Numbered from the stretch's first letter, positions 3,862 through 28,669 are shown. The stretch: 32,000 nucleotides of DNA from Nanopusillaceae archaeon (GCA_049974095.1 JBMFJD010000010.1:1590-33589), one strand, 5' to 3'. Numbers and translations are program-made. The notes: generated by a model not told the origin, from the sequence alone.

Positions 3862-4180
3862 CTTAATTTAATCATTGTAAAAAATATTATTAAATATTTT
3901 TAAATAAAAAAATTCTCTTAATATAAATAAATAAAACAATTTAAAATTTAAATGGATATTGCTATTATATATAAAAAGACATATAAAGATTTTTTATGAA
4001 AAGAAAAGATAAATTAAAAGATATTAAATGAAGAAAAGAAAAATTATGTGAAATGTTGAAATGATATAAAGGTTTTTATATAGATTTTTAATTAAGATAT
4101 AAATAAAATATACTCAAACTAATAGCTAAATAGTTTAAGATAAATTAATAAAATTTCTTAGAATAAAATATTTTATAAAT

Positions 4181-4253
4181 AGCCCCGTCGTCTAGTGGTC
4201 TAGGATGCAGGGTTTTGGTCCCTGTGACCGGGGTTCGAATCCCCGCGGGGCTA
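4181..4253 (+). tRNA. tRNA-Gln (anticodon UUG), no intron, CCA not encoded
   Basis: Hand-folded cloverleaf. Acceptor AGCCCCG/CGGGGCT, anticodon stem CAGGG/CCCTG, loop TTTTGGT, T-arm CGGGG-TTCGAAT-CCCCG, discriminator A. It forms a GC-rich island in an AT-rich spacer. Confidence 0.9.
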
Positions 4254-4285
4254 GTTTTATAAATAATCAAAATTTATATTTTGAT

Positions 4286-4906
4286 ATGATCGAATCATTA
4301 TCTTTAATTTTATCTCAAATATTCTCTTATGATTCATTAAAATTACTAGTAATTTTTGTTGTGATAATTATTATAGGATACTTTATTGGTAAATTGGTGG
4401 CATTTATATTAAAAATAATTCTAAATAAAATTTTGGGATTAGATAATTGGTTACATGAAAAAGGAGTATTACAAAATATCTCTCTTACACAAATTTTAAT
4501 CAATATAATTAAATTCTTTATATATTTTTACTTTTTTGGTTATGCATTTTATATAATTCCATATTTATCATTCATAGGAAAAATAATATTCCAGATTTTG
4601 AATTATCTATTATTAATAATTTTGTTAATGATTTTATCATTTGCAATGATGGAAATATTAATAAAATCTTCATTAGAACCTTTATTAGATAATTTAAAAT
4701 ATAAAGAATATTTATTAGCATTTATTAAATTTATTGTTTTGTTCTTTGTATTAATTTTAATACTAAGTTATCTTAATTTATTATCTCCAGTACTATTATA
4801 TCTTTTTGTTATATTATTTGTAGGAATTGTAATATCAATATCAATAGCAGTTGGGGTAGCATTAAGTGAAATATTAAAGAAGAAATTTAGAGAAATATTC
4901 AAATGA
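4286..4906 (+). CDS. multi-pass membrane protein, unknown function
   Basis: The track ORF 4205-4906 starts inside the tRNA. The first plausible start is ATG 4286 (MIESLSL...). The protein is highly hydrophobic with repeated long helices followed by basic stretches. Confidence 0.55.
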   Translation: MIESLSLILSQIFSYDSLKLLVIFVVIIIIGYFIGKLVAFILKIILNKILGLDNWLHEKGVLQNISLTQILINIIKFFIYFYFFGYAFYIIPYLSFIGKIIFQILNYLLLIILLMILSFAMMEILIKSSLEPLLDNLKYKEYLLAFIKFIVLFFVLILILSYLNLLSPVLLYLFVILFVGIVISISIAVGVALSEILKKKFREIFK

Positions 4907-6069
4907 ACTATAAGGAAAAGATAATATTAATAGCAAATAACTTATTTGGAAGTTTCTTAAATAGTTTATATTTTATTTATCCATCATATTTTAATTTTCC
5001 TTCATCAATATATTTTTCTTTAGTTGCAATATCTTATATTTCTTCCCTAATTAGTTCTGTATTTTTTGGAAATTTGAAAATAAATGAAAAAAATTATTTA
5101 ACTATTTCAATGATTGGGGTAATTGGTCCTTTTTTATCAATATTTTTCCTATTAATTCCAAATCCAATTTTATTTATTCTTTCATATTTCTTATTTAATT
5201 TTACATATTATTCAACATACTTTTCCTTTTTATTATATTATAAAGATGTTCAATTGAATTTTTACTTTAATATTTATTGGACTTTTGGATCAATAATTCT
5301 CCAATTTTCTTCATTAATTTTATCAATTTTTTATAATCTATATTTAGTTGCAATATTATTTTTAATTTCAATTATTATTATTCTTTCAAGGAATATTTAT
5401 CTATTTTTATTTACAGAAAAATATGAAATAAATTTACTAGAAAAGATAGATAAATTATTTTCTATAGCAGAAGGTAATATTGAAAAATTTGGATCTTTAC
5501 ATCCATTTTATGAAGGATTAATATTTCCAATAAATATAAAGAAAATAAAGATAGGATTTTTAGAATTATATAATTTATTTGTTTTAATAGGTTTTTCATT
5601 GATTTGGTCTTCATTAGTATATTCAGTTAATTTATTCTCTTTATCATTTATTTATCCATCCTTATTATTTATTAATGGTATTTATTCATCAATTTTATAT
5701 AGAATATATAAAAGAAGTATTAGTTTCAAGAATATAAAAATTGGAATAATATCTAGGTTATTAATGGGAATTGTTTTATTTATTATAATGATTTTGTTAT
5801 TATCAAATAAAACAATAAGTGCTATAATATTAACATTATTATTTATTTTAGCAGCATTTTCATGGACAATGTTTCAATATTTCTTTGATAATTATATAAT
5901 AAATTATTATCCACAAAAGTTTGGAAATATATATTTCTTTAGAAATATAGGAGGAGCAATTGGTTCTTTATTATTATATATTATTTCATTACAATATGGA
6001 TTAATTATTTCATTTTTAATTTTAAGTATTTCAATTTTCTTCTTAAATTATACTTTAAAGGTTAAATAG
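4903..6069 (+). CDS. polytopic membrane protein (possibly transporter-like), unknown function
   Basis: 388 aa with about 10-12 hydrophobic segments. It has an ATGA overlap with the upstream membrane-protein gene. No diagnostic motif recognised. Confidence 0.5.
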   Translation: MNYKEKIILIANNLFGSFLNSLYFIYPSYFNFPSSIYFSLVAISYISSLISSVFFGNLKINEKNYLTISMIGVIGPFLSIFFLLIPNPILFILSYFLFNFTYYSTYFSFLLYYKDVQLNFYFNIYWTFGSIILQFSSLILSIFYNLYLVAILFLISIIIILSRNIYLFLFTEKYEINLLEKIDKLFSIAEGNIEKFGSLHPFYEGLIFPINIKKIKIGFLELYNLFVLIGFSLIWSSLVYSVNLFSLSFIYPSLLFINGIYSSILYRIYKRSISFKNIKIGIISRLLMGIVLFIIMILLLSNKTISAIILTLLFILAAFSWTMFQYFFDNYIINYYPQKFGNIYFFRNIGGAIGSLLLYIISLQYGLIISFLILSISIFFLNYTLKVK

Positions 6070-7554: not shown

Positions 7555-9966
7555 ATGAAAGTATTTGTTATAGATTTTGATCATGATAAAGAAAAAGTAT
7601 ATATTTATGGAAGAGATGAAAATGGAAAAAAGGTAAGAATTGAATATGATCAACCATATTATGTATATTTAATATTAAAAGATGAAAAATATTTAAATGA
7701 AATAGAAAATAAATTAAAAGAAGAAAAATATGTAAAGAAATATGAAATTGAAAAAAAGAATTTTATTGGAAAAGAATATACTGTAATTAAAGTATATTTA
7801 AACCAGGATGATTATGATAAAATAAAACAATTTGCAGATAAATTAAAAGAAGAAGGTAAATTAGTTGGAAAAAAAGAAGGAGATATACTAATTATTAAAA
7901 AATTCCAGATAGATAATAATATATATCCATTAGATTGGTATGATTTAGATTTAGAATTAATAAAAAAAGGAGATATTGACTATTATAAATTTAAAAAAAA
8001 TAATGGAAAAGTTGATGGAAAATATAATTTAAAAGTTGTTGCAATAGATATTGAAACTGTATCTGAACAAGCAATTCCTTCTCCAGATAAAGTACCAATT
8101 TATTTAGTTTCAATATATGATGGAAAAAATTATTATTCAATATATTGGAGTGGAAATGCAGAAATTGGGATAAAAGTAAATAATGAATTAGAATTATTAA
8201 AAAAGTTTAATGATATAATAAAAGAAATAGATCCAGATGTAATTGTAGGATATAATTCAAATAATTTTGATTTTTATTTCTTATATGAAAGAGCAAAAAA
8301 ATTAGGATTTAATTTTAATTTTGGATGGGATGGAAAAGGAATTATATATACAAAGAAAAGAGAAGAAGATAAAAAATATAAAATTACTGGAATACAACAT
8401 GTAGATTTATATGATATTGTATCAATATTATTTGCTCCTCAATTAAATTCAGAAACTTATTCATTAGATGAAGTTGCAAAAGAAATATTGGGAGAAGGAA
8501 AAATGGATATGGATATTAATAAAATGACAGATATAATTTATAATACAAAAGATTTTAATTATTTAATAAAATATAATCAAAAAGATGTTGATTTAACTTT
8601 TAGATTATATAAATATTTTGAAAATATTTTAATTGAAATTTCAAGATTGGTTGGAATAACATTATATGAATTATCTGGAAGTACATATGGAATATTAGTA
8701 GAAAATTATTTAATTAAAAAGGCAAGGGAATTTAATGAAATAATACCAAATAGACCAAAACCTGAAGAAGTTGAAGAAAGGAGAAAAATAACATATGCTG
8801 GAGCAATTGTATTAGAACCAAAACCTGGATTATATAAAAATATTGCAGTATATGATTTTAGGTCTCTATATCCATCAATAATTATTAGATATAATATTTC
8901 TCCAGATACATTAAAATGTGAACATGAAGAATGTAAAAAGGATAAAATAATTGCTGAAACAAGTTTAGGAAAAATTGAAGTATGGTTTTGTAAAAAGAAA
9001 AAAGGATTTATTTCTACAATATTAGAAAAAATATTTGAAGAAAGAGCTGAAATAAAGAAAAAAATGAAAAATATGGATAAAAATAGTGAAGAATATAAAA
9101 TACTAGATAGTAGGCAAATTGCATTAAAATATATAATTAATTCTACATATGGATATTTAGGATTTCCAAATTCTAGATGGTATTGTTTGGAATGTGCATC
9201 GTCAGTTACTGCTTTAGGAAGGAAACATATAACAGAAGTAAAAGAATTTATTGAAAAGAAAGGATATAAAGTATTATATGGAGATACAGATTCAATTTTT
9301 GTAATTGTAAATAATAAAGAAGATGCATTGAAATTATTAGAAGAAATAAATTCTATTTTACCAAAACCATTAGAAATGGAATTTGAAGATTATTATATAT
9401 CTGGAATCTTTGTTGAAAAAAGATCTGGAGAAGGAGGTGCTAGAAAGAAATATGCGTTATTATCTGAAGATGAAAGTATAAAATTGAGAGGATTTGAAGT
9501 TGTAAGAAGAGATTGGTCAGATATTGCTGGAGAAGTACAGGAAAATGTAATAAGATTAGCATTAGAAGGAAAAATAAATGAAATAAACCAATATCTTTCT
9601 GATGTAATAAATAAAATAAAGAATCATGTATATCCAAAAGAAAAATTTATTTTAAGGGAACAATTAAGGAAAGAATTATCTGAATATGAAGTAACAGCTC
9701 CTCATGTAATTGCTGCAAAGAAATATAAAGAAAGAGGATATAATGTTGGAAAAGGATTTATTGTAGAATATATTATTGTAAGAGGAGGAGAAAAGATATC
9801 TGATAAAGTAAGATTAGTGGATGAAGTAAAAGATAATGAATATGATCCAGATTATTATATAAATAAACAAATAATACCTGCAGTAGAATCTATATTAAGG
9901 GCATTAAATATACATATAGAAAATATTGGAAAGGTACAAAAAAATATTTTATCATTCTTTAAATAA
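7555..9966 (+). CDS. polB: family B DNA polymerase (contiguous, intein-free)
   Basis: 803 aa. Exo I VAIDIET, Exo II GYNSNNFDFYFL, Exo III YNQKDVDL, Pol A DFRSLYPSII, Pol B KILDSRQIALKYIINSTYGYLG, Pol C YGDTDS. Confidence 0.95.
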   Translation: MKVFVIDFDHDKEKVYIYGRDENGKKVRIEYDQPYYVYLILKDEKYLNEIENKLKEEKYVKKYEIEKKNFIGKEYTVIKVYLNQDDYDKIKQFADKLKEEGKLVGKKEGDILIIKKFQIDNNIYPLDWYDLDLELIKKGDIDYYKFKKNNGKVDGKYNLKVVAIDIETVSEQAIPSPDKVPIYLVSIYDGKNYYSIYWSGNAEIGIKVNNELELLKKFNDIIKEIDPDVIVGYNSNNFDFYFLYERAKKLGFNFNFGWDGKGIIYTKKREEDKKYKITGIQHVDLYDIVSILFAPQLNSETYSLDEVAKEILGEGKMDMDINKMTDIIYNTKDFNYLIKYNQKDVDLTFRLYKYFENILIEISRLVGITLYELSGSTYGILVENYLIKKAREFNEIIPNRPKPEEVEERRKITYAGAIVLEPKPGLYKNIAVYDFRSLYPSIIIRYNISPDTLKCEHEECKKDKIIAETSLGKIEVWFCKKKKGFISTILEKIFEERAEIKKKMKNMDKNSEEYKILDSRQIALKYIINSTYGYLGFPNSRWYCLECASSVTALGRKHITEVKEFIEKKGYKVLYGDTDSIFVIVNNKEDALKLLEEINSILPKPLEMEFEDYYISGIFVEKRSGEGGARKKYALLSEDESIKLRGFEVVRRDWSDIAGEVQENVIRLALEGKINEINQYLSDVINKIKNHVYPKEKFILREQLRKELSEYEVTAPHVIAAKKYKERGYNVGKGFIVEYIIVRGGEKISDKVRLVDEVKDNEYDPDYYINKQIIPAVESILRALNIHIENIGKVQKNILSFFK

Positions 9967-10289
9967 TGGATGAGATAGAGGAATATGAAAAAATATTAGA
10001 TGAGTTAGAGAAAAAGATAAAAAATTTAAAAGAAGAATTAGAAAAAAATAAAAGATTAAATTTAGAATTAAAAGATAAGTATTTTAAATTAAAAATGCTT
10101 TTGGAAGATAAAAAGAAAGATTATAAAGAAATATTAGAAGAATTAAAGTACTTACTTCTTAATATAGATCAAAAACTGAATGATATTGAGGATATTAAAA
10201 AAAGAGTTTATAACCTAGAACTTAGGGTAGATTTGTTATCAAAAAATATAGAAGAGATAAAGAAAGATATGATAAAAGAAAAGATATAA
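9966..10289 (+). CDS. small coiled-coil protein, unknown function
   Basis: 107 aa, K/E/L-rich with a heptad-like pattern throughout. Its ATG overlaps the polB stop (TAATG). Confidence 0.5.
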   Translation: MDEIEEYEKILDELEKKIKNLKEELEKNKRLNLELKDKYFKLKMLLEDKKKDYKEILEELKYLLLNIDQKLNDIEDIKKRVYNLELRVDLLSKNIEEIKKDMIKEKI

Positions 10290-10321: not shown

Positions 10322-11473
10322 ATGGATATAAAAGAAAATTTTAATATAATAGAGGAGTTCTATACCTATGTAAAAAAGTTTAATGATAAGCTAATAGAAC
10401 TAAATAAGGCATTAAATAAATATGTAGAAAAAACAGAATTTTATGATCAATTAGATGGATTAAGAGAAGAATTAGAAGAAGTTAAAAAATCATTAGATAA
10501 TTATAAATCATATTTAAATGAAGATGTATTAGAAAAAATAAGATATATACAAGATATCAAATTAAAAGTAGATGTATTAGAAAATAATCAGAAAAATTTT
10601 GTTGATTATTCATATTTAGTAGATATAAAATCTAAATTAAATAAATTGGAAGGAGAAATAAATGATTTATTAACAAAAGTATCAAATTCTGAAGAAAAAA
10701 TTAAAGAATTCGAAGAAGAAAAAGAAAAAATATCACAAATAGATAATAAATTAGAAGAAATAAATAATAATTATGTAAATAAAGAAGAATTTGAAAAAAT
10801 AAAACAAGAAATAAATAAGGTTACTGAAGCTGTTTCAAAAACATTAGAAAAAATATCCTCAGATTTAATACAATATAATAAATTGTTAGAAGATGTATCA
10901 GAAATAAAAGAAAAGGAACTATTTCAAATAAACAATAAAATAGAAGAATTAGAAGAAAAATATAAGAAAATAGATAAAGATTTTGATAAAAAAATTGGAG
11001 AAATGAGTTATTTATTAGAAATAAAAGAAGAAGATATAAAAAATATTAAAAATATAAAGATAGCAGAAGAATTGTATAATAAATATGTTAATTTTGAAAA
11101 TAGATTAAATGGTATGTATACATTATTTGAAGATCTTCAAAATATTGTAAATGATATAAAAAATAAAACACAAGATATAGAAAAGGTAAAAGAATTTGAA
11201 AATAAAATGAATGAATTAGAAAGTAAAATGGGAAATCTTAGAAATGAGCTAAATGATTTGAAATATGAAATATTGGATTCAAAAGATATTGTAGAAACAG
11301 TATTAGCAGATTATGAAAAAATGGAAAATAGAATAAAAAGAATAGAAAATGTTTTACAATTAACGAACTTTGATTATATTGTTGGAGAAGTTGAAAAGAT
11401 TAAAGAATTAGAGAATGATATAGAGAATATAAAAAGGGAATTATATGAAAGAAGAATAAGTACTAGATCTTAA
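10322..11473 (+). CDS. long coiled-coil protein, unknown function
   Basis: 383 aa, almost entirely K/E/N/I/L heptad-like sequence with recurring ..K(L/I/M)(N/E)EL(E).. units. No P-loop or other enzymatic motif. Confidence 0.55.
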   Translation: MDIKENFNIIEEFYTYVKKFNDKLIELNKALNKYVEKTEFYDQLDGLREELEEVKKSLDNYKSYLNEDVLEKIRYIQDIKLKVDVLENNQKNFVDYSYLVDIKSKLNKLEGEINDLLTKVSNSEEKIKEFEEEKEKISQIDNKLEEINNNYVNKEEFEKIKQEINKVTEAVSKTLEKISSDLIQYNKLLEDVSEIKEKELFQINNKIEELEEKYKKIDKDFDKKIGEMSYLLEIKEEDIKNIKNIKIAEELYNKYVNFENRLNGMYTLFEDLQNIVNDIKNKTQDIEKVKEFENKMNELESKMGNLRNELNDLKYEILDSKDIVETVLADYEKMENRIKRIENVLQLTNFDYIVGEVEKIKELENDIENIKRELYERRISTRS

Positions 11474-11932: not shown

Positions 11933-11941
11933 ACTTTATAT
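11933..11941 (-). promoter_or_regulatory. TATA-like box (ATATAAAG on minus strand) for the C/D sRNA
   Basis: Centred about 27 nt upstream of the sRNA 5' end. It overlaps the ATG of the divergent peptidase gene. Confidence 0.35.
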
Positions 11942-12920
11942 GTATGAAATAATTCCAATGCTAATTGTCGATTCTATTATTTTAGGAATATCTTCTTATC
12001 AGGATATAAAATATAAATCTGTTGATGATATCATTATTTATTCTTTATTTATTTTTAATATATTTTACTTTCTTTTTTTAATTTATTTAGGATATTATCC
12101 TCAAAATATTTTATTTTCTTATTTTATTCTTCTACTTTTTATAATTTTATATTCTCTAAGATTATTAGCAATTGGGGATCTATATGTATTTTTCTCTATT
12201 TTCTTATTATTATCATATTTTTCTCTAAATAGTCTATTTTTATTCTTCTTTTATTTATTTCTTTTTGGATTTATATTTCATAATCTTGAAGGGGCAAAAA
12301 TATTTTATAAGAATAATAATAAATATTTCTATTTATCTATTTTAGATATAATAATTATTTTGCTTTCTATTTACTTTATTTATAATTTCTTTTTCTCCTA
12401 TTCAATTCTTTATCTATTTATTTCTTTAATATTTTTATATATTTCATATTTTATCTTTAGAATATTTGAAAAAGAATTAAGGGAAAAATTAACATTTAGG
12501 AGAAAAGCAGAAGAGCTTGTTGAGGGGGATTGGATTGAAGATAATATTGAGTTAGAAAAAATAGAAGAAGAAGATATGAATTTATTATTAAAATATTTTG
12601 ATGTAGAAAGAAAAGAAAAATATATTTTAAGATTTAAGAAGGAAAAAATATATAATAAAATTTTATTAATAATTATCTCTATTTTACCAATTATTTTTTA
12701 TATAATCTCTCTTAAGTTCTTTATATTTTCAATTATAATAATACTATTATCTTTTCATATATTTCAAAATAAAATATTCAAAGGAAGGAAAGGTTTATCA
12801 AAAGAAGAAATTGAAGTTTTAAAGAAGGTATCTAAATATAATAAAATAGAATTTAATGTATATGAAGGAGCTCCATTTGTTCCACCAATATTCTTTGCCT
12901 TAATATTATTAATAATATGA
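11940..12920 (+). CDS. FlaK/PibD-type (A24 family) prepilin/prearchaellin peptidase-like membrane protein
   Basis: 326 aa, polytopic. SSYQDIKYKSVDDIII matches the first catalytic-Asp region of FlaK (ASVQDFRSREIEDYIW as I recall it). The second Asp, in LLAIGDL, lies 58 aa later (61 in FlaK). There is a charged soluble insert and a C-terminal APFVPPIFF. Confidence 0.6.
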   Translation: MYEIIPMLIVDSIILGISSYQDIKYKSVDDIIIYSLFIFNIFYFLFLIYLGYYPQNILFSYFILLLFIILYSLRLLAIGDLYVFFSIFLLLSYFSLNSLFLFFFYLFLFGFIFHNLEGAKIFYKNNNKYFYLSILDIIIILLSIYFIYNFFFSYSILYLFISLIFLYISYFIFRIFEKELREKLTFRRKAEELVEGDWIEDNIELEKIEEEDMNLLLKYFDVERKEKYILRFKKEKIYNKILLIIISILPIIFYIISLKFFIFSIIIILLSFHIFQNKIFKGRKGLSKEEIEVLKKVSKYNKIEFNVYEGAPFVPPIFFALILLII

Positions 12921-13927
12921 AATATAATATAATAGACAAAAAAACAATCAAAATTAATGCTGAACTAGATGAAGATTTAATATATTTGTATAAAATAATA
13001 AATCCTGGAGATATAATTGAAGGGGAAGATTATAGGGTAATAAAATTTGAAAATGAAAAAGAGAAAATAAAAGTAAAGATAAAAATAGAAGTAGAAGATA
13101 TAAAATTTTCTCAATATGGAAATTCATTAAGAGTATCTGGAAAAATATTGGAAGCAGATAAGGAAGTTGTTGGACATTATCATACATTTGATATAAAAGT
13201 TGGAAGCGAATTTAAATTATATAAAAAAGATGGGATAAAAAGTTATGAATTAAAAATATTGGAAAAATCTAAAAAAAGAAAAAATCAAATTTTTGTTGTT
13301 TCTTTAGATAATAATGAAATTGCAGTTGGAATAATTAATAATGGGGTAAAAATATTAAAGGAAGAAGAAATAAATATAAGTAAAGGAGATCCTGAAGAAG
13401 AATCTAAAAGAAAAAAGATATATTCTGAAATATTAAATATAATAAATGAATATAAATTAAAATATTTATGTATTATTGGCCCGGCATTCTATCCTGAAGA
13501 ATTTTATGAATATATAAAGGAAAAAGCAAATGTAGAAAAAATATTGACATTTAAAGTATCAAATGGTGGTGTAAATGGAATTTATGAATTTATTAGAAGA
13601 AAGGAATATTATGATACATTAAAAAATATTGAAATATTTGAATTAAATAAATTAATGGATGAAATATTATATTTAATCCAAAAAAATTTAATTGCGTTTG
13701 GATTTGAAGAAGTATATAAAAATGCATTATATGGGAATATAGAATATGTATTAATTACTGAAGAATTTTTTAAAAAAATGAAAGAAGAAAATATTAATAA
13801 ATTATTAGAATTATTTGAGATATTAGATAAAATAAATTCAGAAATCTATTTTGTAAATGAAAATATACAGAATTATGAATTAATAAATAAATTTGGTATT
13901 ATAGGAAAGTTAAGATATAAAATATAA
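12917..13927 (+). CDS. pelA: Pelota (Dom34) mRNA surveillance/ribosome rescue factor
   Basis: 336 aa. The N-terminus (KINAELDEDLIYLYKIINPGDIIEG) and the three-domain length fit archaeal Pelota. It has an ATGA overlap with the upstream gene. Confidence 0.75.
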   Translation: MKYNIIDKKTIKINAELDEDLIYLYKIINPGDIIEGEDYRVIKFENEKEKIKVKIKIEVEDIKFSQYGNSLRVSGKILEADKEVVGHYHTFDIKVGSEFKLYKKDGIKSYELKILEKSKKRKNQIFVVSLDNNEIAVGIINNGVKILKEEEINISKGDPEEESKRKKIYSEILNIINEYKLKYLCIIGPAFYPEEFYEYIKEKANVEKILTFKVSNGGVNGIYEFIRRKEYYDTLKNIEIFELNKLMDEILYLIQKNLIAFGFEEVYKNALYGNIEYVLITEEFFKKMKEENINKLLELFEILDKINSEIYFVNENIQNYELINKFGIIGKLRYKI

Positions 13928-13952
13928 ATTTTCAGATATGTCTATATAATAT

Positions 13953-15002
13953 ATGAAAAGAAGATATCAAACAATGGCAGTAGGTTTATTTTTTGTACTA
14001 TTAGGTCTTGCTTTATTAATATATTGGATTCTATTACCAGTTCCTTCTAAACAACAGCTCCTTCAAGAAATACTAAATCAAACAAATATTTCAATGCAAA
14101 CAAGTCAAATAACTACACAGATATCTCAACAATATCAATATGAAAATATTGAATTATCGACTTCTTCTATTTATTATTATATTGCTAATAATTATACTAT
14201 AGGAAATTATATTCCATCATATATAATTTATTTAGGAAATTCAAAATTTCAATCTAATATATTTTATGGTAAGATAAGTAAGGAATACTATTTTTATTTT
14301 TCTAATAATTCATTGGGAGTTAATTTAACAGCAATTTTTTCATGCAGTAATGGATATTTTGACATATACATTAATGGTCAAGAAATCTATTCTGGATGTC
14401 AAAACGGACAATTTAGTATATTTATTCCTTCTTCATATTTAATATATGGAGAGAATGGATTAAAAATAGAATTTGTACCAGATAGTATAATATTTAATGG
14501 ATTTGGAGAAATAAATAATTTAGAAATAACCTATTTACAACAAAATTCTTTATCTTTCTCTTATTATTATGTTTCTGGAAATGCATATATGTACTATGAT
14601 TTTTGTCCATATTATCCTCAAGATGTGGAATTAATAGTAAATAATTTATCCATACCTCTTTCTTCATGTTCTGGTTTATTTTATTTAACACCATATTTGA
14701 ATATTGGGGAAAATAATATTGAATTAATATCTTCATATCCAGTTAATATTAATCAATTATATTTACAATCTAATCAACATTTATTTTTTATATTATTTCC
14801 AAATAATATAGAAAATAATTTGCTAGAAGTTATAGTAAGTAAAGGAGAAGGAACTATGATATTAAATAATAACTGTGTTTATTATGTAAATTCTGAGCAA
14901 TCTGTATATGCAATCAATATTTCTAATTGCTTATTACCTGAAAATATTTTAGAAATAAGGCCAACAGGATATTTATATATTTCATATTTACAAATATCAT
15001 AA
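13953..15002 (+). CDS. exported/anchored surface protein 1 (unknown family), three Cys-pair modules
   Basis: 349 aa. N-terminus is MKRRYQT plus a hydrophobic helix. N/S/Y/I/Q-rich with few charged residues, 6 Cys and many N-x-S/T sequons. The unit C-x17-20-C...[GP]EN-x-[IL]-[EK]-[IL] occurs three times. Confidence 0.65.
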   Translation: MKRRYQTMAVGLFFVLLGLALLIYWILLPVPSKQQLLQEILNQTNISMQTSQITTQISQQYQYENIELSTSSIYYYIANNYTIGNYIPSYIIYLGNSKFQSNIFYGKISKEYYFYFSNNSLGVNLTAIFSCSNGYFDIYINGQEIYSGCQNGQFSIFIPSSYLIYGENGLKIEFVPDSIIFNGFGEINNLEITYLQQNSLSFSYYYVSGNAYMYYDFCPYYPQDVELIVNNLSIPLSSCSGLFYLTPYLNIGENNIELISSYPVNINQLYLQSNQHLFFILFPNNIENNLLEVIVSKGEGTMILNNNCVYYVNSEQSVYAINISNCLLPENILEIRPTGYLYISYLQIS

Positions 15003-15003
15003 A

Positions 15004-16230
15004 ATGAGAAAAAAGAGTGGTGCTGGTGCTGTCTTTCTTCTATTTATATTGGTAGCTATTGGTATTCTCTTTTACTTTTATGGGGGAAGAATTATACAAG
15101 CAGTTGAAGTATATATGTACAATCCAGGAAGTTCTAGTATTATTCAAGCTGGAGAAAATTTATTCAATGGATTTTACGGATCTTTGCAAGCAGTTTATAA
15201 TATTCTATCAAATCCTGAGCAATATGCAGAAAAACAATTAATGCAAACAGAACCTGCAAATCAACAGGTTTATTCTTATACCATAAATTTACAACCATTA
15301 CAGTCTCTACCAGGTTTAATAGAAAAAGATGGAAATACTACCCAAACAGAAGTAGAATATGAATTTGAATATTCTTTACCTGCAAATGAAATACAAAATA
15401 ATCAAGTAGAATTTATATGTAATAGTAGTTATCCTTCATTACTTAATGGATGTTTTATAGATTTTCCAACTACTTCTAATGTTCAACCATCTTCAACATC
15501 AATATCTAGTCCTTTTCAAGTTCAAACAGTAGTATGTCAAATTCCATCATTTCAAATAAATACGTCTAATTGTAATTCTATTTTATCATTAGGCTTTACT
15601 ATAGATAATAATATTAAAGCTATTATAAATGATGTTATGAGTAGTACTAAATATAATTTCTTGGCAGTAAGTGCTACAATTGCTGCATATGCGAATGCTA
15701 ATAATGAAAATATTTATACATACCTAAAAATAAATCCATCTGGATACGATGTTGGAATCTATAATGGAGTTTATAATTTACCATATATAGAAATTGGAAG
15801 AGCAGGAAAAGAAAGTGGATATCCTGTTTTATTAGAAAATAATCAAACTGCATATGATGTAATATTTATTAGTTTAGATTCTATTAATGGGATAAAAAAG
15901 ATTAATTCATGGACCCTTTCATTTATTTATGATCCGTCACAAATTAATTTAGAATATTTAAATGGAAATCAATGTACTAATTCTTATTCTTTTGGAAATA
16001 ATCGAGAATATGAAATATCATGCAATAATAATAATTGTAATATATATGTAAATTCAGATTTTTTGAAAATATTACAAAATAATGGACAATTGTTAATTTT
16101 AGCAATACCTTTATGTATGCAACCAGGTTCCAGTTTCCAAGGATATACAACAGTAACAATTATTTCAAATATTAGTTATAATTATTTGCTGTCATCTTCT
16201 GCTACTATAAATTATTATACATCTTCATAG
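15004..16230 (+). CDS. exported surface protein 2 (unknown family), class III-like signal
   Basis: 408 aa. MRKKSG/AGAVFLLFILVAIGILFYF resembles a type IV pilin (class III) signal. It has 8 Cys and is N/S/T/Q/Y-rich. There is a 1-nt gap to the upstream gene. Confidence 0.65.
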   Translation: MRKKSGAGAVFLLFILVAIGILFYFYGGRIIQAVEVYMYNPGSSSIIQAGENLFNGFYGSLQAVYNILSNPEQYAEKQLMQTEPANQQVYSYTINLQPLQSLPGLIEKDGNTTQTEVEYEFEYSLPANEIQNNQVEFICNSSYPSLLNGCFIDFPTTSNVQPSSTSISSPFQVQTVVCQIPSFQINTSNCNSILSLGFTIDNNIKAIINDVMSSTKYNFLAVSATIAAYANANNENIYTYLKINPSGYDVGIYNGVYNLPYIEIGRAGKESGYPVLLENNQTAYDVIFISLDSINGIKKINSWTLSFIYDPSQINLEYLNGNQCTNSYSFGNNREYEISCNNNNCNIYVNSDFLKILQNNGQLLILAIPLCMQPGSSFQGYTTVTIISNISYNYLLSSSATINYYTSS

Positions 16231-16265
16231 AAATGTTTATATTTTATTAAATAGAAAAATTAAAT

Positions 16266-17249
16266 ATGAAGACAAATAAAGTATTATCTATATTACCAAT
16301 TTTTCTTTTAGGAACAACCCTATTTTATTTTTCTTCATGTCCAACAGTAAATATTAATACTGGAAGCGGAGGAAGTTCTGGAAGTACAGTTCAATTCACA
16401 CAACCATCGTGGGCAATAAATCAGGCAGGAAATGTACAAATAACTATACAATCTCCATCTATGTTATTCTATAATCCAAATTTAGGATTATCATATACAT
16501 TACCAATGTCATATACAAATTCTATATATACTGAATCTAATAATCAATTAACAGTAACATATCAAATAGCTACCTATGGAAATATATCTCCATCTTCTGG
16601 TTCATTTACTCCTCAAACTCCTATATATAATCCATCATCAAAGTCTATTACTGTAATTACATATCCTTTACAAGCATTACAACTTAAATTACCTTCTGGA
16701 TTACAAGCAGTTCCATCTTCTCTCCTAATTGAGATACAATATAATATAAGTAATGTACAAACAAATATAGAAATACCATTAATATTAAAAAATACAAATT
16801 CTGGAATAACTCTTACAGAACCAATTTATTATTCTTCTTCTCCAGTTATTCCAACTTCTAATAGTATTCAGATAACAGAAGGTGGTGGATATGCAACATT
16901 TTCTCTTTCTCTAGAAGATGCTTTAGGATGTTTTAGTGCAATGAATCCTTCATTAGGAGAAATTCCAGAGATAAATATAGATAATACAGTACTTCAACTA
17001 AATGCTGGAGGACAATTAATTAATGTACAAAATGGTCAAAACGGATTTGATTGTGCACCAACAGGAACAATACCTTTGCAATCAGCAGCAATAGTATGTC
17101 AAATAAATATGAATCAATTAGCATCTTCCTATCCATCTATACAGAGCGCTTTAAGTTCTAATGTTGGTGTTATAGGAGGAGTATTAATTAATATAACATA
17201 TAACTGTGAAGAACAAACTTCCTTTAGTATACCATTAAATGAAACATAG
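16266..17249 (+). CDS. exported surface protein 3 (unknown family), lipobox-like signal
   Basis: 327 aa. The signal is MKTNKVLSILPIFLLGTTLFYFSSC. It has 4 further Cys and is S/T/N/Q/P-rich with few charged residues. Confidence 0.65.
   Translation: MKTNKVLSILPIFLLGTTLFYFSSCPTVNINTGSGGSSGSTVQFTQPSWAINQAGNVQITIQSPSMLFYNPNLGLSYTLPMSYTNSIYTESNNQLTVTYQIATYGNISPSSGSFTPQTPIYNPSSKSITVITYPLQALQLKLPSGLQAVPSSLLIEIQYNISNVQTNIEIPLILKNTNSGITLTEPIYYSSSPVIPTSNSIQITEGGGYATFSLSLEDALGCFSAMNPSLGEIPEINIDNTVLQLNAGGQLINVQNGQNGFDCAPTGTIPLQSAAIVCQINMNQLASSYPSIQSALSSNVGVIGGVLINITYNCEEQTSFSIPLNET
16287..16340 (+). repeat. 54-nt signal-peptide-coding repeat, copy 1
   Basis: tct-a-tattaccaatttttcttttaggaacaaccctattttatttttcttc-a-tgt matches 17257-17310 with 2 mismatches, including a 46-nt perfect core. 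Confidence 0.9.
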
Positions 17250-18117
17250 GATTTTTTCTGTATTACCAATTTTTCTTTTAGGAACAACCCTATTTTATTT
17301 TTCTTCTTGTATTTCTCTTAGTAATCAATCTTCTACTACGCAGTCTTCTTCTACATATTCTAAAGCTAGTTTTTATTTTGATGTTTATACAGGTCCGGGT
17401 TTTTCTCCCTATGTTTATCCAAATGTACCATTTCAGGTTCCAATAATTATTAGTACTTCTAATCCAAATTTTCAATGGACTATATGTTTAGCAAGTTTAC
17501 CAAATGGATTTGCAATAAGTGGAAATACATGTTATTCTTCATCAAATATTGCATATAATAATTATAATCAGACTCAAATATATTTACCATATAATGGAAA
17601 TATAACATTAACTGATCCTTCTCTTTTATCTTCTAATAACATAAATCTAAATATATATGAATGTTATCAATATGAAAGTTCTTATTATATACAAGGTTGT
17701 TTTGAAAATCAGCAATGTTCATATACTTTCCAATCTTTTACACAAAATGATCCTATACAAATAAATAATATAAATGCAATACGTACATCAAATGGATATT
17801 TATTAAATATTTATGTTAGTATAAATAGAGGATCATCAGTATTTGATATTACTACAAATAATATTATAAATAAATGTAATCCAAATAATATTAATTTATT
17901 GAATTATTCTTTATATTATAATCTAACTTTGTTTATTAATGGAAATTCATACTATTATAATGGTTATTTAACATTTCCTTCCAATTCGAATAATTATGAA
18001 ATCTCTATACCAATTAATTATCAAGGAACAAATGAATATATTTTTGGTAATTTGGCATTTTACTATTATATATTTGAAGAAAATACAATTGCAACATTAA
18101 ATGTACAAACTTCATAA
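17239..18117 (+). CDS. exported surface protein 4 (unknown family), lipobox-like signal, signal-module paralog of protein 3
   Basis: 292 aa. The signal is MKHRIFSVLPIFLLGTTLFYFSSC. It has 6 further Cys and, by hand count, about 6% charged residues. It overlaps the upstream gene by 11 nt. Confidence 0.65.
   Translation: MKHRIFSVLPIFLLGTTLFYFSSCISLSNQSSTTQSSSTYSKASFYFDVYTGPGFSPYVYPNVPFQVPIIISTSNPNFQWTICLASLPNGFAISGNTCYSSSNIAYNNYNQTQIYLPYNGNITLTDPSLLSSNNINLNIYECYQYESSYYIQGCFENQQCSYTFQSFTQNDPIQINNINAIRTSNGYLLNIYVSINRGSSVFDITTNNIINKCNPNNINLLNYSLYYNLTLFINGNSYYYNGYLTFPSNSNNYEISIPINYQGTNEYIFGNLAFYYYIFEENTIATLNVQTS
17257..17310 (+). repeat. 54-nt signal-peptide-coding repeat, copy 2
   Basis: Matches 16287-16340 (offset 970 nt). 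The rest of the two genes shows no comparable nucleotide identity. Confidence 0.9.
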
Positions 18118-18141
18118 ATTATTTGTATATAAAAATATAAA

Positions 18142-18918
18142 ATGTATAAGAGAAAGGATTATCCAAAAGAAAATGATTATGTAATATGTACTGTAAAAGA
18201 AATATCAGATATGGATGTAAAAGTAAGTTTAGATGAATTTGAGAATTTTAATGGAATAATCCCAATTGATGAATTATCTAATAGAAGGATAACAAATCCA
18301 AGAATAATTGTTAAGGAAGGTAAAAAAATAGTTTGTGTAGTATTAGATGTAGATATAAATAATAGATTAGCAACATTATCTTTGAGGAGAGTAGATAAAA
18401 ATAAACAAAAGGCAAAGGTGCTAGAATATAAAAGAGAAATTGTTGCTTATAATGTATTAAAAATTATGGGTGAAAAAGAGAAAATTGATATGAAAGAAAT
18501 AGAAGAAAAGATTATATTTAAAATAGTACCTAAGGAAAAATTATATAATGTATTTTTGAATGCATATATAAATGGAAAAAAAGTATTAGAAGATTATGAA
18601 ATAGATAAAAAATTAATAGATAAATTACATAAATATATATTAGAATATTTGAATCCTCCAAAATATCAGTTTGCATACATTTTACAAGCATATAATATAG
18701 AAGGAGATGGAATAAATAAGTTAAAGGAATTCTTAAAAGAAATAAAAGATATTGGGGTAAATATTACTTATTTAGGTTCTCCATCATATTTAATTAAATA
18801 TATTACTATAGATCCTTCAGATTTGCAAAAAAAGGAGAAGAAATTGATGGAAACAATTGAAGAAAGTGCTAAAAAATATAATATAATTTATGAAATAAAT
18901 AAATATGAAAGAGATTAG
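18142..18918 (+). CDS. eif2a: translation initiation factor aIF2 alpha subunit
   Basis: 258 aa. N-terminal S1 domain (YPKENDYVICTVKEISDMDVKVSLDEF...GIIPIDELS) and typical length. It is followed by nop10, as in many archaea. Confidence 0.9.
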   Translation: MYKRKDYPKENDYVICTVKEISDMDVKVSLDEFENFNGIIPIDELSNRRITNPRIIVKEGKKIVCVVLDVDINNRLATLSLRRVDKNKQKAKVLEYKREIVAYNVLKIMGEKEKIDMKEIEEKIIFKIVPKEKLYNVFLNAYINGKKVLEDYEIDKKLIDKLHKYILEYLNPPKYQFAYILQAYNIEGDGINKLKEFLKEIKDIGVNITYLGSPSYLIKYITIDPSDLQKKEKKLMETIEESAKKYNIIYEINKYERD

Positions 18919-19081
18919 AAAATGTCCAAATTGTAAAACATATACATTTAAAGAAATATGTCCAAAATGCGGGACAAAAACAGTTAGAGTTATCCCTCCA
19001 AAATTTTCTCCAGAAGATAAGTGGGGTGATTATAGAAGAAAAATGAAAAGGGAAATTTTATATAAAAAAGGATGGCTATAA
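18905..19081 (+). CDS. nop10: H/ACA RNP protein Nop10 (58 aa, not in ORF track)
   Basis: Hand translation gives MKEIRKCPNCKTYTFKEICPKCGTKTVRVIPPKFSPEDKWGDYRRKMKREILYKKGWL. This has the CxxC...CxxC zinc ribbon and the PPKFSPEDK..YR signature. It overlaps the aIF2-alpha 3' end by 14 nt. Confidence 0.85.
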   Translation: MKEIRKCPNCKTYTFKEICPKCGTKTVRVIPPKFSPEDKWGDYRRKMKREILYKKGWL

Positions 19082-19087
19082 TATTAT

Positions 19088-19888
19088 ATGGAATTTATAT
19101 TAAATAAAAAAGAATTTGAAAATATAGAAAATGGTATATTTTTATATTCAATTGGAGGAGGATTTGGGAATATAGCAAGAGTAGTTGGTCAAAAAATAAT
19201 AAAAACATTTAATGGAAAAATAGTTGGTAGAATAATAACAGATTTTTTCCCAGATTTTGTTAGAATTGGAAAAAACGGATTGGTTTCTGATAATATTAGT
19301 TATAAATTATATAAAGCAAGAGTTGGAAATTATGATTTTATTATTTTATATGGAGATTTTCAAATATCTATTTTAGAAGATCCTGGATTTTCGTTATATC
19401 TTAGATATAAGTTTATGAATAAACTATTTAGAAAAATGTATCCTTATAATATAAATGAATATATTATACTTGGTGGATTGGGAGTTGCAAATCAATTGGA
19501 ATCTGAAGATCCGAAATACATGTTTGCTTTTAATAAATATTATGATCAAAATAAGATAAAGCAAAAATTGGGAGAAATAAATATATTTAAGTCAGAGAAT
19601 ATAATTGGGATGAGTGGTTTGATATTATATTATTCTCAAATATTTAAGAAACCAGCTTTTCTTTTATTAGTAGAAACTTATTTATCTAACCAAATAAATG
19701 GATATTTTGCATCTGCAAAAGCATTAGAAGTGTTGAGTAAAATATATGAATTTCAGATAGATGTATCAGATTTAAGAGAAAAAGGAAGCAAATTAAAAGC
19801 AGAGTTACAAAAAGATATTAATAAAATAAAAGAGTTAGAAGAAAAGAGAAAGAAAGAAGAAGAAAGAAGAGAATATTACTTTGGCTAG
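19088..19888 (+). CDS. PAC2-family proteasome assembly chaperone-like protein (COG1938-type)
   Basis: 266 aa. GGGFGNIARVVGQ near the N-terminus, IILYGDFQ, and a charged coiled C-terminus. Its position after aIF2alpha-nop10 matches the conserved archaeal neighbourhood. Confidence 0.55.
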   Translation: MEFILNKKEFENIENGIFLYSIGGGFGNIARVVGQKIIKTFNGKIVGRIITDFFPDFVRIGKNGLVSDNISYKLYKARVGNYDFIILYGDFQISILEDPGFSLYLRYKFMNKLFRKMYPYNINEYIILGGLGVANQLESEDPKYMFAFNKYYDQNKIKQKLGEINIFKSENIIGMSGLILYYSQIFKKPAFLLLVETYLSNQINGYFASAKALEVLSKIYEFQIDVSDLREKGSKLKAELQKDINKIKELEEKRKKEEERREYYFG

Positions 19889-21348: not shown

Positions 21349-23112
21349 ATGGAATTTGTTCCATTATATATTAAAAATTTATGCTTCAATTGTGGAGGAA
21401 CCATATCATCTTATAGATTATCTAATGGTTTACCATGTAATGATGATTTAGATGATAATGATATAAAAGAATTATTAAATATAAAGGATGAAAATGAATT
21501 TATAGAAAAATTATATGAAAAATTAAAACAAAAAGGAAAATTAAAGAACTTTGATGAAATATATAAATTATATAAAGAAACAAAAGAATTTAAAGAATTT
21601 TTTAATAAATTAATTAAAAATGATCCTTGGAGAATACAATTAATGTGGTTTAAAAGATTGTATAAAAATATAAGTTTCTCTATGATCACTCCAACAGGAA
21701 TTGGAAAATCTACATTTATTATAGTTTCTTCAATATATTTTGCTTATAAGTATAAAAAGAAGATAATAATTGTTTTGCCTACAAGGTTATTGGTAAAACA
21801 AGTATTGGATACATTTAACAAATTTTTATCTGAATTACAAATTAATTTAGAAATAGCATATTATTATGGAAAAGAAAAGAAGGGACAAAAAGAAAAAATA
21901 AAAGAAGGAAATTATAATATTTTGGTTATATCTAATCAATTTTTATCAAAAAATTTTGAATTATTAAAAGATAAAAAATTTGATATAGCGTTTATTGATG
22001 ATGTAGATTCATTTTTCAAAGGATCAAAGAATATAGAAAGAATATTTATTTTGTTAGGATATACTCAGGAAGAAATAGATATTGCTAAAAAGATAATTGA
22101 TTTAAAATTATCTGGAAAATTAAATTTTAATAGCGAATTGTATAAAAAATTTTTAGAAATTAAAAATAAAAAGGCAGGAATTATTATATTATCTTCTGCT
22201 ACTGGAAGTTTAAGGGGTAAAAGAGTATTATTATATAGAGAATTGGCAAACTTTACTGCAGGAACTGGTACTTCTAAAATAAGAAATGTTATAGATGTAT
22301 TTTATTATCCTAAAGATGATATAAAGAAAGAAGTATTAAAAATTGTAAATTTGCTAAAAGATGGGATATTAATTTTTGTTCCAAAAGATAAAGGTATAGA
22401 ATTTGCAAAAGAATTATACGAATATTTAAAGAATAATAATGTAAATGCTGAATATGTATCAGCAGAAGTTAAAAATATCGATGAGATAATAAATAATTTT
22501 AAAGAAGGAAAGGTAAATGTATTAATTGGAATTTCAGATCCATATGGAATATTGGTTAGGGGTATAGATATACCAGAAAGGATTAAATATGCAATATTTG
22601 TTGGAATTCCTAAGATAAGGATTAATATCTCTAAATTAGAAAAAAATATAAATAATCTTTTAATATTAGCATCTTTAATAGCACCAGTATTACCAGAACT
22701 TGAAAAAATAGAATTATCAAGAAAAGTTGAAATAACTAGGAGAAATTTAAAAAGATTATCTTCAGAATCTTTAAAATTAATTAATGAATATTTATCTGGA
22801 AATAATGTAAATCTAAAAGGATTTAACAAGAAAGTTGCAGATGATTTATTATTATTATATAATAGAGTAAATGAGTATTTAAAAAATAAAGAAATAATTG
22901 AAAAAATAAAGGAAAATCCTGAGGTGTCTACAGAAATAATAAATAATGATATTTATGTTAAAATTGCAGATCTAAAATCATATATTCAAGCATCTGGAAG
23001 AACTTCTAGATTATATGCTGGAGGGATTACAAAAGGTCTTTCTATTATTTTAGTTGATGATGAAAAACTGTTAAAATCCTTAGATTTAAAGTTAAGATAT
23101 TATCTGTTGTAG
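21349..23112 (+). CDS. rgy: reverse gyrase, helicase-like N-terminal half only (split gene)
   Basis: 587 aa. N-terminal finger CFNCGG...LPC, FKEFFNKL...WRIQLMWFKRL, Walker A TPTGIGKST, DDVD box, SATG, VRGIDIPERIKYAIFVGIPK and YIQASGRTSRLYAGGITKG. The ORF stops where the TOPRIM/topoisomerase IA module would normally begin. Confidence 0.88.
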   Translation: MEFVPLYIKNLCFNCGGTISSYRLSNGLPCNDDLDDNDIKELLNIKDENEFIEKLYEKLKQKGKLKNFDEIYKLYKETKEFKEFFNKLIKNDPWRIQLMWFKRLYKNISFSMITPTGIGKSTFIIVSSIYFAYKYKKKIIIVLPTRLLVKQVLDTFNKFLSELQINLEIAYYYGKEKKGQKEKIKEGNYNILVISNQFLSKNFELLKDKKFDIAFIDDVDSFFKGSKNIERIFILLGYTQEEIDIAKKIIDLKLSGKLNFNSELYKKFLEIKNKKAGIIILSSATGSLRGKRVLLYRELANFTAGTGTSKIRNVIDVFYYPKDDIKKEVLKIVNLLKDGILIFVPKDKGIEFAKELYEYLKNNNVNAEYVSAEVKNIDEIINNFKEGKVNVLIGISDPYGILVRGIDIPERIKYAIFVGIPKIRINISKLEKNINNLLILASLIAPVLPELEKIELSRKVEITRRNLKRLSSESLKLINEYLSGNNVNLKGFNKKVADDLLLLYNRVNEYLKNKEIIEKIKENPEVSTEIINNDIYVKIADLKSYIQASGRTSRLYAGGITKGLSIILVDDEKLLKSLDLKLRYYLL

Positions 23113-28594: not shown

Positions 28595-28669
28595 GCCCCC
28601 GTCGTCTAGTCAGGTCTAGGATACAGGGTTTTCGTCCCTGTGACCCGGGTTCAAATCCCGGCGGGGGCA
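28595..28669 (+). tRNA. tRNA-Glu (anticodon UUC), contiguous, no intron, CCA not encoded
   Basis: Acceptor GCCCCCG/CGGGGGC, anticodon stem CAGGG/CCCTG, loop TTTTCGT, T-arm CCGGG-TTCAAAT-CCCGG, discriminator A. Confidence 0.9.

Follow-up and report, generated by a model that had tools for sequence, protein, structure and literature searches.

We describe four adjacent genes of a Nanopusillaceae archaeon, here called A, B, C, and D, which appear from comparison with related loci to be a cut-down form of a five-gene envelope module, not described before, that is common to Woesearchaeota-type lineages. They lie in a 32,000-nucleotide (nt) stretch of a hot-spring metagenome-assembled genome with a G+C content of ~22% (GCA_049974095.1 JBMFJD010000010.1:1590-33589); we refer to this whole stretch as the window. 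All four are forward-strand open reading frames (ORFs), coding for proteins of 349 (A, 13953..15002), 408 (B, 15004..16230), 327 (C, 16266..17249), and 292 (D, 17239..18117) amino acids (aa). The genes for Pelota (12917..13927, forward strand) and eIF2-alpha (18142..18918, forward strand, then Nop10 and PAC2) are the upstream and downstream synteny anchors of A–D in Nanobdellales. An earlier interpretation of the window, made without database searches (the sequence-only reading), had placed the same four co-directional ORFs here, with a gap of 1 nt, one of 35 nt, and an overlap of 11 nt between them, and all of this is confirmed. It also took the set for a dedicated invention of a reduced thermophilic symbiont, which does not hold, as the genes appear to descend from a module already present in Woesearchaeota-type lineages.

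An exhaustive search with the A-family profile returned only 19 cluster representatives, 14 of them close and five distant. The distant homologs (389–423 aa) have a normal charge and N-termini such as MRKKGQAAS..., and their contigs again carry Pelota, PAC2, and Nop10 as neighbors. At locus L018, the A-like gene is followed by one for a polytopic membrane protein and then by genes for proteins with the canonical lipoboxes FLASC and LAGC. Scanning metagenomes with three distant A-like proteins identified 14 more loci. We call this group Woesearchaeota-type, a label taken from one locus annotated as Candidatus Woesearchaeota by NCBI and provisional for the other contigs.

Where the flanking sequence suffices, on at least 10 contigs, the Woesearchaeota-type gene order is a divergent Pelota gene, A-like, B-like, three lipoprotein genes, and the gene for the small subunit of replication factor C. 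The A-like proteins have ‘KKGQ', small residues, and a helix, and then the motif YILFLPP[DG][DE]R. The B-like proteins (480–745 aa) have four to six predicted helices and a Cys-containing ectodomain, and the lipoproteins (~305–445 aa) are mutual paralogs (E values of 1e-14 to 1e-64), typically with one lipobox Cys and six others at conserved spacing. None of the Woesearchaeota-type module proteins matches a Pfam or NCBIfam family. At loci L019, L020, L023, L024, L026–L028, and L030, the B-like ectodomain is weakly collinear with the lipoprotein paralogs (hhalign P ~0.006, at most 186 columns); the B-like ectodomain and the three lipoproteins of the module may have one common origin.

Direct profile links from window B and C to the Woesearchaeota-type families are non-significant, as expected given the compositional shift, and a direct hhalign comparison of nano-B with the Woesearchaeota-type B-like family is borderline (P 0.0065 over 265 columns). 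Two bridge loci, L033 and L036, provide the homology links of window B and C to these families. L033 has the same flanks as the window, with Pelota on one side and eIF2-alpha, Nop10, PAC2, an MJ0538-family gene, and L44e on the other, and between Pelota and eIF2-alpha it carries five genes coding for proteins of 356, 449, 343, 311, and 352 aa with ordinary composition. The 449-aa protein (L033_449) matches both the window-type B profile (1.1e-17) and the Woesearchaeota-type B-like profile (1.2e-8), and the last three proteins have the leaders FFAGC, LAGC, and LAGC and match the lipoprotein profiles at 1e-6 to 4e-14.

When iterated, the Woesearchaeota-type lipoprotein profile takes in Nanobdella D and then window D (E 8.4e-21). 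Alignment of D with the lipoproteins by hhalign gives P 7.3e-5, and a Cys spacing of 12 in D (+118/+130) agrees with that of the lipoprotein family. For C, the bridge is a protein of the second locus, L036_270, which matches the C profile at 3.3e-5 and the LP3 profile at 1.3e-4; moreover, counted from the leader Cys, the C cysteines at +197/+238/+253 fall at the positions of the final three in the lipoprotein family. From these matches we conclude that the wider module includes A, B (linked transitively through L033_449), and D; C probably belongs to its lipoprotein family as a divergent member. Through L033, the ties of B and D to the module are firm and that of C is weak.

Within Nanobdellales, a scan of species-representative genomes with the Pelota protein found nine Nanopusillus and Nanobsidianus loci in which the flanking gene order is conserved, and homolog look-ups added Nanobdella aerobiophila, strain YN1, and a metagenomic relative (L011) that is 82% identical. 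The window is closest to YN1 (PolB 92%, eIF2-alpha 88%), next to Nanopusillus and Nanobsidianus, with Nanobdella outside; YN1 is its closest cultured relative. Between Pelota and eIF2-alpha, N. aerobiophila carries all four genes at nearly the window lengths (349, 408, 328, and 284 aa), and L011 carries a partial B, C, and D. Locus L005 has A, B, and C before the contig ends. Nanopusillus and Nanobsidianus have A, C, and an ORF of ~90–120 aa whose match is confined to the first ~80 residues of B, and in YN1 the set is down to A and a short B. A is present in every related locus examined and was never lost in the thermoacidophilic ones. On the tree implied by the housekeeping identities, the four-gene state is ancestral here, and the B ectodomain, C, and D appear to have been lost more than once.

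The C ortholog of N. aerobiophila is MJ1_0467, confirmed by name, and MJ1_0466–0469 are the probable orthologs of A–D. A literature search for these four tags found no paper, and further searches uncovered no account of the module. Of the 736 coding sequences of N. aerobiophila, 735 are transcribed (bioRxiv 10.1101/2023.10.27.564410). Wurch et al. report that surface proteins poor in Lys and Arg, such as Nps760, escape tryptic proteomics (PMC4935971), and A–D would likewise escape it.

Searches of Pfam, NCBIfam, and PDB sequences with A–D and with their family profiles gave nothing significant. The statement of the sequence-only reading that these proteins have no recognizable family stands for those three collections and fails at the levels of fold and synteny. 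B had looked like an orphan in a word-indexed search, which returned only B itself, a result overturned by the locus-based searches. Profile–profile comparison among A–D shows that the leader of C and D is the one shared element, with no other significant similarity; the weak similarity of A to B is confined to the transmembrane helix.

After a basic N-terminus, A has a single transmembrane helix that ends in a conserved Y-x-x-L-L-P, then a short helix and three jelly-roll repeats at residues 85–197 (14205..14543), 198–277 (14544..14783), and 278–349 (14784..14999), all forward strand. The repeats resemble one another by hhalign (repeats 1 and 2, P 1.6e-7; 1 and 3, P 8e-7; 2 and 3, P 1.9e-7), and each holds one invariant Cys pair (131/149, 218/239, and 308/326); in the A superfamily as a whole, with its Woesearchaeota-type members, only the 218/239 pair of repeat 2 is invariant. 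The structure model has a mean predicted local distance difference test score (pLDDT) of 60, rising to ~80 for residues 85–195, and repeat 1 is the best-modeled part of the protein. A Foldseek search of the PDB returned, at probability 1.00, the sugar-binding jelly rolls of GH2/GH35 enzymes and the carbohydrate-binding domains (CBDs) of BcsB, and as modeled the A repeats resemble jelly rolls of the galactose-binding-domain type. Window A itself has no Pfam match; a distant homolog (P0032) matches Pfam BcsB (PF03170) at 8.8e-8 and 31 bits, above the curated cut-off, and weaker matches within the A family are to Glyco_hydro_2_N, CBM-like, and GBD-like families.

The sequence-only reading assigned a class III, pilin-type signal to B. 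Neither B nor any B ortholog fits the FlaFind pattern (a short basic N-terminus with [KR]-[GA] at -2/-1 directly before a hydrophobic helix), and it is the relatives of A that carry a KGQ class III-type motif, so the signal had been put on the wrong protein. The start of N. aerobiophila A, MSKGQTVL, fits the FlaFind pattern. All eight of the Woesearchaeota-type A-like proteins examined start [KR]-[GA]-[QD], mostly ‘KKGQ', with one matching FlaFind and seven failing the strict pattern; this pattern is conservative, missing even the archaellin of the window (MKGQG...). Window A has RRYQ at the place of the motif, an apparently decayed form with no FlaFind match. Because the Gly before Gln is replaced by Tyr, Leu, or Ser in A of the window, YN1, Nanopusillus, and L005, cleavage at a class III-type site is unlikely in these proteins. 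The A helix itself is highly conserved, with Y24 and P29 invariant.

B consists of an N-terminal transmembrane anchor and a conserved juxtamembrane helix (residues 1 to ~85), followed by a ~320-aa ectodomain with eight Cys. The N-terminal module persists as short ORFs of ~90–170 aa in Nanopusillus, Nanobsidianus, and YN1, and the ectodomain is found in N. aerobiophila, L005, L011, and L033. Because B has no class III match and its helix is equivalent to the final transmembrane helix of the polytopic B-like homologs, we predict that it is a signal-anchored membrane protein. The short-B ORF of YN1 as called (L013, 9046-9552) has an N-terminal extension of ~80 residues with runs of Tyr and Asn before the conserved helix, possibly from a mis-called start or as a low-complexity cytoplasmic tail.

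C and D both carry LPIFLLGTTLFYFSSC, a shared leader motif that was correctly picked out by the sequence-only reading. In C, a Sec-type leader ending in an invariant Cys25-Pro (F-S-S-C-P) is followed by two immunoglobulin-like (Ig-like) beta-sandwich domains (~57–174 and 181–326) with four invariant Cys; D has a similar leader ending in an invariant Cys24, and then six invariant Cys. The leader-coding DNA of the two genes forms a 70-nt repeat, with copies at 16271..16340 in C and 17241..17310 in D (both forward strand; 87% identical), and protein similarity between C and D ends at the leader. The C model has a pLDDT of 76 and a predicted TM-score (pTM) of 0.73, and its Foldseek matches are tandem Ig-like adhesins (Cnm, E 1.3e-6, and CNA), with low TM-scores (0.15–0.19) and 6–13% identity; we take this to be a generic fold match of the model.

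The residues at the leader Cys are F-S-S-C in the window and F-S-T-C, F-A-V-C, or F-S-I-C in orthologs, and the Cys at +1 after the hydrophobic region is invariant in all C (C25) and D (C24) orthologs. A canonical lipobox, tested as [LVI][ASTVI][GAS]C at the signal peptide end, occurs in 19 of 25 Woesearchaeota-type lipoproteins and in L033 (LAGC twice, and FFAGC by the PROSITE-style rule). Because orthologs in less derived lineages carry canonical lipoboxes (LAGC), a lipid at the leader Cys is the likeliest mode by which C and D would be held. Lipoproteins are predicted to be prevalent in DPANN archaea, where the lipidation enzyme AliA is present ‘with some gaps' (PMC12462473). Compared with the archaeal lipobox lipoproteins handled by Haloferax AliA/AliB (PMC12462473), C and D have the same n-region, h-region, and invariant Cys at the leader end, and their L033 and Woesearchaeota-type orthologs are canonical (LAGC, LSSC, and similar; 19/25); however, the thermoacidophilic clade has F-[SA]-[STVI] before the Cys, outside the canonical motif, and its lipidation is a prediction.

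Lys, Arg, Asp, and Glu together make up 9.2, 10.5, 5.8, and 5.8% of A, B, C, and D, compared with 27–40% in cytoplasmic neighbors, and the hand count given in the sequence-only reading for D, 17 charged residues of 292, is exact. The charge depletion is real, but it is not peculiar to A–D: other surface proteins of the window are also charge-poor, with 7.7% charged residues in the archaellin (28728-29318; PF01917 at 1.7e-19), 9.9% in the adjoining pilin-like protein (29320-29928), both of which start MKGQ, and 3.2% in a large surface protein at 30.1 kb. Orthologs of A–D in neutrophilic lineages with ordinary composition have 18–28% charged residues, and the cultured relatives of the window are thermoacidophiles (PMC4935971, PMC11420986). 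Because the archaellin, pilin-like, and large surface proteins are equally or more charge-poor, the composition of A–D is best read as an acid hot-spring adaptation common to all exported proteins of this organism, not as a trait of the family.

Outside the leaders, A, B, C, and D contain six, eight, four, and six Cys, as claimed, and every Cys is invariant in the ortholog alignments; their conservation in pairs agrees with the idea of extracellular disulfides. The abundance of N-x-S/T sequons fares differently. A, B, C, and D have 7, 5, 4, and 5 sequons, and shuffling the same sequences predicts 5.3, 7.7, 6.6, and 8.5, so that sequons are not commoner than composition predicts and three of the four proteins (B, C, and D) fall below expectation; the counts follow from a composition rich in Asn, Ser, and Thr. 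The one hydrophobic segment in each protein is N-terminal, in keeping with the export signals proposed earlier. From these predicted segments, and from a composition like that of the window's surface proteins, we agree that A–D are exported or envelope proteins.

The ratio of non-synonymous to synonymous substitution rates (dN/dS) between the window and L011 is 0.27 for B, 0.22 for C, and 0.25 for D, and 0.04–0.11 for six neighboring genes. B, C, and D are therefore real genes, held by purifying selection and evolving faster than the genes around them. The notion that A–D are spurious or decaying ORFs, with an odd composition that reflects non-coding or pseudogenized DNA, could draw on the want of a matching database family and on the first protein search for B, which gave B alone. 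It is refuted by N. aerobiophila orthologs of like length (349, 408, 328, and 284 aa), by the invariance of all cysteines, by the dN/dS values of 0.22–0.27, and by the confidently predicted fold of C, and we give it practically no credence.

The phylum Nanobdellota in the GTDB sense includes Woesearchaeales. We tentatively favor a reading in which A–D are subunits of a membrane-tethered, disulfide-stabilized, glycan-binding envelope complex, vertically inherited in Nanobdellota and retuned to acid. All four proteins would be inserted or exported via the Sec pathway. A would be anchored by its N-terminal helix, with the three tandem jelly rolls projecting as a glycan-binding arm, and B would be the membrane base, polytopic with four to six helices in Woesearchaeota-type relatives and represented here by the last helix and the Cys-rich ectodomain. 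C and D would be tandem beta-sandwich ‘struts' held to the membrane via the invariant leader Cys. We speculate that the assembly binds glycosylated envelope material, either the cell's own surface-layer (S-layer) glycoproteins or those of a partner cell, and that in the thermoacidophilic lineage charged residues were stripped and extra disulfides added. We regard gene anatomy, synteny, conservation, invariant cysteines, fold classes, purifying selection, and the homology of A, B, and D to the wider module as established; membership of one complex, lipid anchoring of C and D, glycan binding by A, and the biological role are what we infer.

Several observations weigh against this reading. Synteny is what suggests a physical association of A–D. 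A galactose-binding-type fold is not proof that A binds a glycan, and the model of A is only moderately confident, with repeats 2 and 3 poor. None of the C or D leaders of any thermoacidophilic ortholog matches the canonical lipobox, and the similarity of C to the lipoprotein family is weak (E 0.03–0.4; hhalign P ~0.05 over 164 collinear columns). In addition, the repeated loss of the B ectodomain, C, and D implies that they are dispensable in some lineages, which is awkward for an essential housekeeping role. A bolder proposal, which we consider unlikely, is that the module is an ancestral Nanobdellota machine built from a polytopic base, three paralogous lipoproteins, and a lectin-like arm with a pilin signal, always encoded beside Pelota and binding glycosylated surfaces, host cells included. 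If this were true, the cultivated strains would form a natural deletion series, with four genes in Nanobdella, A, short B, and C in Nanopusillus, and A and short B in YN1.

The sequence-only reading proposed an undescribed attachment or filament system, and the filament part finds no support. No assembly ATPase or platform gene is present at the locus or among the genes listed around the module in ~30 related loci with flanks; neither A–D nor the distant homologs match the pilin/archaellin families PF01917, PF07790, and PF04021 at E values up to 1; and the A helix ends in a conserved Pro or Pro-Pro. A filament is thus unlikely. A milder alternative has A as a class III-signal protein, cleaved by an A24-type prepilin peptidase encoded upstream of Pelota and placed in a short pseudopilus or membrane-proximal array, with B–D as accessories. 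It would account for the FlaFind-matching MSKGQTVL of N. aerobiophila A, for the [KR]-[GA]-[QD] starts of all eight Woesearchaeota-type A-like proteins, for an A24 peptidase gene conserved just upstream of Pelota–A in Nanobdellales, and for the highly conserved transmembrane helix with its invariant Y24 and P29; the archaellin and pilin-like protein of the window start MKGQ, and the A24 peptidase of the window could process such ‘KGQ' proteins. Nonetheless, the -1 Gly is replaced in the window (RRYQ) and by Tyr, Leu, or Ser in YN1, Nanopusillus, and L005; there is no ArlI/PilB-type ATPase or ArlJ/PilC-type platform gene between Pelota and eIF2-alpha or beside the module in the listed loci, and no pilin Pfam family matches. 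The conserved Pro or Pro-Pro ends the A helix after ~20 residues, unlike the long continuous helix of filament-forming pilins, and B never fits the pattern, its helix deriving from an internal helix of a polytopic protein. A known counterpart is the Sulfolobus bindosome, in which, in the work of Albers and Zolghadr, PibD reportedly processes the class III signal peptides of sugar-binding proteins. The relatives of A share with it a KGQ signal and hydrophobic helix, a PibD/FlaK-type peptidase gene nearby, and a putative ligand binding by A; in contrast, the module lacks Bas-type ATPase/platform genes and a linked ABC (ATP-binding cassette) transporter, the motif is decayed in the window, and the A domains are jelly rolls, not periplasmic-binding-protein folds. 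On balance, a pilin-like or bindosome-like role strikes us as improbable.

To our knowledge, all DPANN archaea in culture live attached to host cells, and few of the proteins behind this contact are known; A–D might recognize or grip a crenarchaeal host, for example as part of the ‘attachment organelle' seen by cryo-tomography. Their predicted surface location, the lectin-type fold in A and adhesin-type fold in C, a rate of non-synonymous change 3–4 times that of their neighbors, and a gene content that varies among lineages with different hosts would all fit; the proteins behind the YN1 attachment organelle are still unidentified according to the YN1 paper (PMC11420986), and ‘hypothetical external' proteins of Nanoarchaeota carry an excess of non-synonymous single-nucleotide polymorphisms (Jarett et al., PMC6142677). 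Yet the module predates the thermoacidophilic symbionts, being conserved in Woesearchaeota-type lineages; dN/dS well below 1 indicates purifying, not diversifying, selection; and the study of N. aerobiophila surface proteins names other candidates, its main text being silent on these genes. The organelle occurs in YN1 as well as in N. aerobiophila (PMC11420986), yet the YN1 locus keeps only A and short B. Because organelle-bearing YN1 lost the B ectodomain, C, and D at this locus, these are unlikely to be core parts of the organelle, and host contact cannot require them unless YN1 has them elsewhere in its genome. The surface placement envisaged earlier is retained, the faster evolution and the two lectin- or adhesin-like folds (A and C) being further points in favor of that interpretation; the filament and the dedicated symbiont invention are not retained. 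A host-contact role of the module is possible, although as an account of A–D we find it rather improbable.

Less probable still is that A–D form a glycan-handling accessory of the cell's own envelope, in which A would act as BcsB does, on nascent glycan or glycoprotein from a membrane glycosyltransferase or AglB, with B–D as a scaffold. Its appeal is that the A repeats match BcsB carbohydrate-binding domains by fold, and in one homolog by sequence, and that Nanoarchaeota invest heavily in surface glycosylation (PMC4935971). The repeats of A have the same jelly-roll fold as BcsB (PF03170) and the GH2/GH35 domains, and A and BcsB are both membrane-tethered, extracytoplasmic proteins with repeated domains of carbohydrate-binding type. 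However, A has an N-terminal anchor and BcsB a C-terminal one, and A has three repeats and none of the flavodoxin-like domains that alternate with the two CBDs of BcsB. No partner BcsA/GT2 synthase gene lies near A, and none of the listed loci places a glycosyltransferase or synthase gene with the module. Window A has no significant sequence match, and the similarity goes no further than a jelly-roll fold that is very widespread.

The envelope complex that we favor also has partial likenesses elsewhere. The two-domain beta-sandwich of C resembles tandem Ig-like adhesins and matrix proteins (Cnm/CNA, RbmA, and FimC-type chaperones), but C lacks an LPXTG or other defining motif. A–D resemble the predicted surface proteins of N. 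aerobiophila (bioRxiv 10.1101/2023.10.27.564410) and the ‘hypothetical external' class (PMC6142677) in their N-terminal helix, Ig- or lectin-like folds, and faster evolution; the main text of these papers names other genes (MJ1_0160, 0179, 0707, and others), and neither paper reports synteny with Woesearchaeota-type lineages. Nanoarchaeal S-layer proteins of the NEQ300/MJ1_0160 type are large, very highly expressed proteins with multiple Ig domains; A–D are 292–408 aa long, and in N. aerobiophila the S-layer role is given to other genes (bioRxiv 10.1101/2023.10.27.564410). The module itself is thus undescribed, while the types of its parts (lectin-like, Ig-like, and lipoprotein surface clusters) are already known.

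With these relationships, four orphan ‘hypothetical proteins' become a defined syntenic module with assignable folds, found in Nanobdellales of hot springs and in Woesearchaeota-type lineages of groundwater and marine settings. The module lipoproteins are a candidate set for testing the archaeal lipidation pathway in DPANN. A would offer a lectin-like handle, and three cultured strains differ naturally in the parts of the module that they keep.

A–D are part of a nine-gene co-directional array (11940-19888) composed of the A24 peptidase gene, Pelota, A–D, eIF2-alpha, Nop10, and PAC2, in which every gap is at most 35 nt and the widest falls inside the A–D set. The sequence-only reading called A–D a four-gene operon; the tight packing is evident, and because A–D sit within this array the sequence cannot delimit them as an operon of their own. 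The peptidase gene that it noted ~1 kb upstream is likewise present: an A24 (FlaK/PibD-type) prepilin peptidase homolog at 11940..12920 (forward strand), in a conserved position, which overlaps Pelota by 4 nt and ends 1,033 nt before A. Its Pfam matches are weak (PF01478 at 19 bits), and the L036 ortholog matches PF01478 cleanly. Pelota is divergent in Woesearchaeota-type loci, unlike in Nanobdellales, and has other genes on its far side.

Just upstream of the peptidase gene is a pair of coiled-coil genes (9966-10289 and 10322-11473) whose products contain 52% and 41% Lys, Arg, Asp, and Glu; the pair is conserved in all relatives, with weak, sub-threshold matches to FlaC_arch and other coiled-coil families. 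In N. aerobiophila (L012, 2902-3564), an IS605 OrfB/TnpB-like gene with a Cas12f1-like_TNB domain, which the window lacks, is inserted on the upstream side of the A24 peptidase gene. A second surface-protein cluster of the window (28728 to ~32000) contains the archaellin, the pilin-like protein, and the large surface protein (~30110-32000), which exceeds 630 aa and runs past the window end; it has a Sec signal, is rich in Thr, Ser, and Asn, and has paired Cys and ~3% charged residues.

A tRNA-Glu gene lies at 28595-28669, and a tRNA-Gln gene (4180-4254) overlaps the 5' end of a called ORF at 4205-4906, to which relatives align only from residue 28, suggesting that its true start is probably downstream. 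This ORF and the next (4903-6069) code for membrane proteins with no Pfam family and 58–70% identity to Nanopusillus-type orthologs; the 388-aa member of the pair is polytopic and charge-poor. A split reverse gyrase is known from Nanoarchaeum. The 587-aa helicase encoded at 21349-23112 in the window combines a reverse-gyrase zinc finger (PF17915) with DEAD/ResIII domains, has no topoisomerase part, and resembles the helicase half of a split reverse gyrase.

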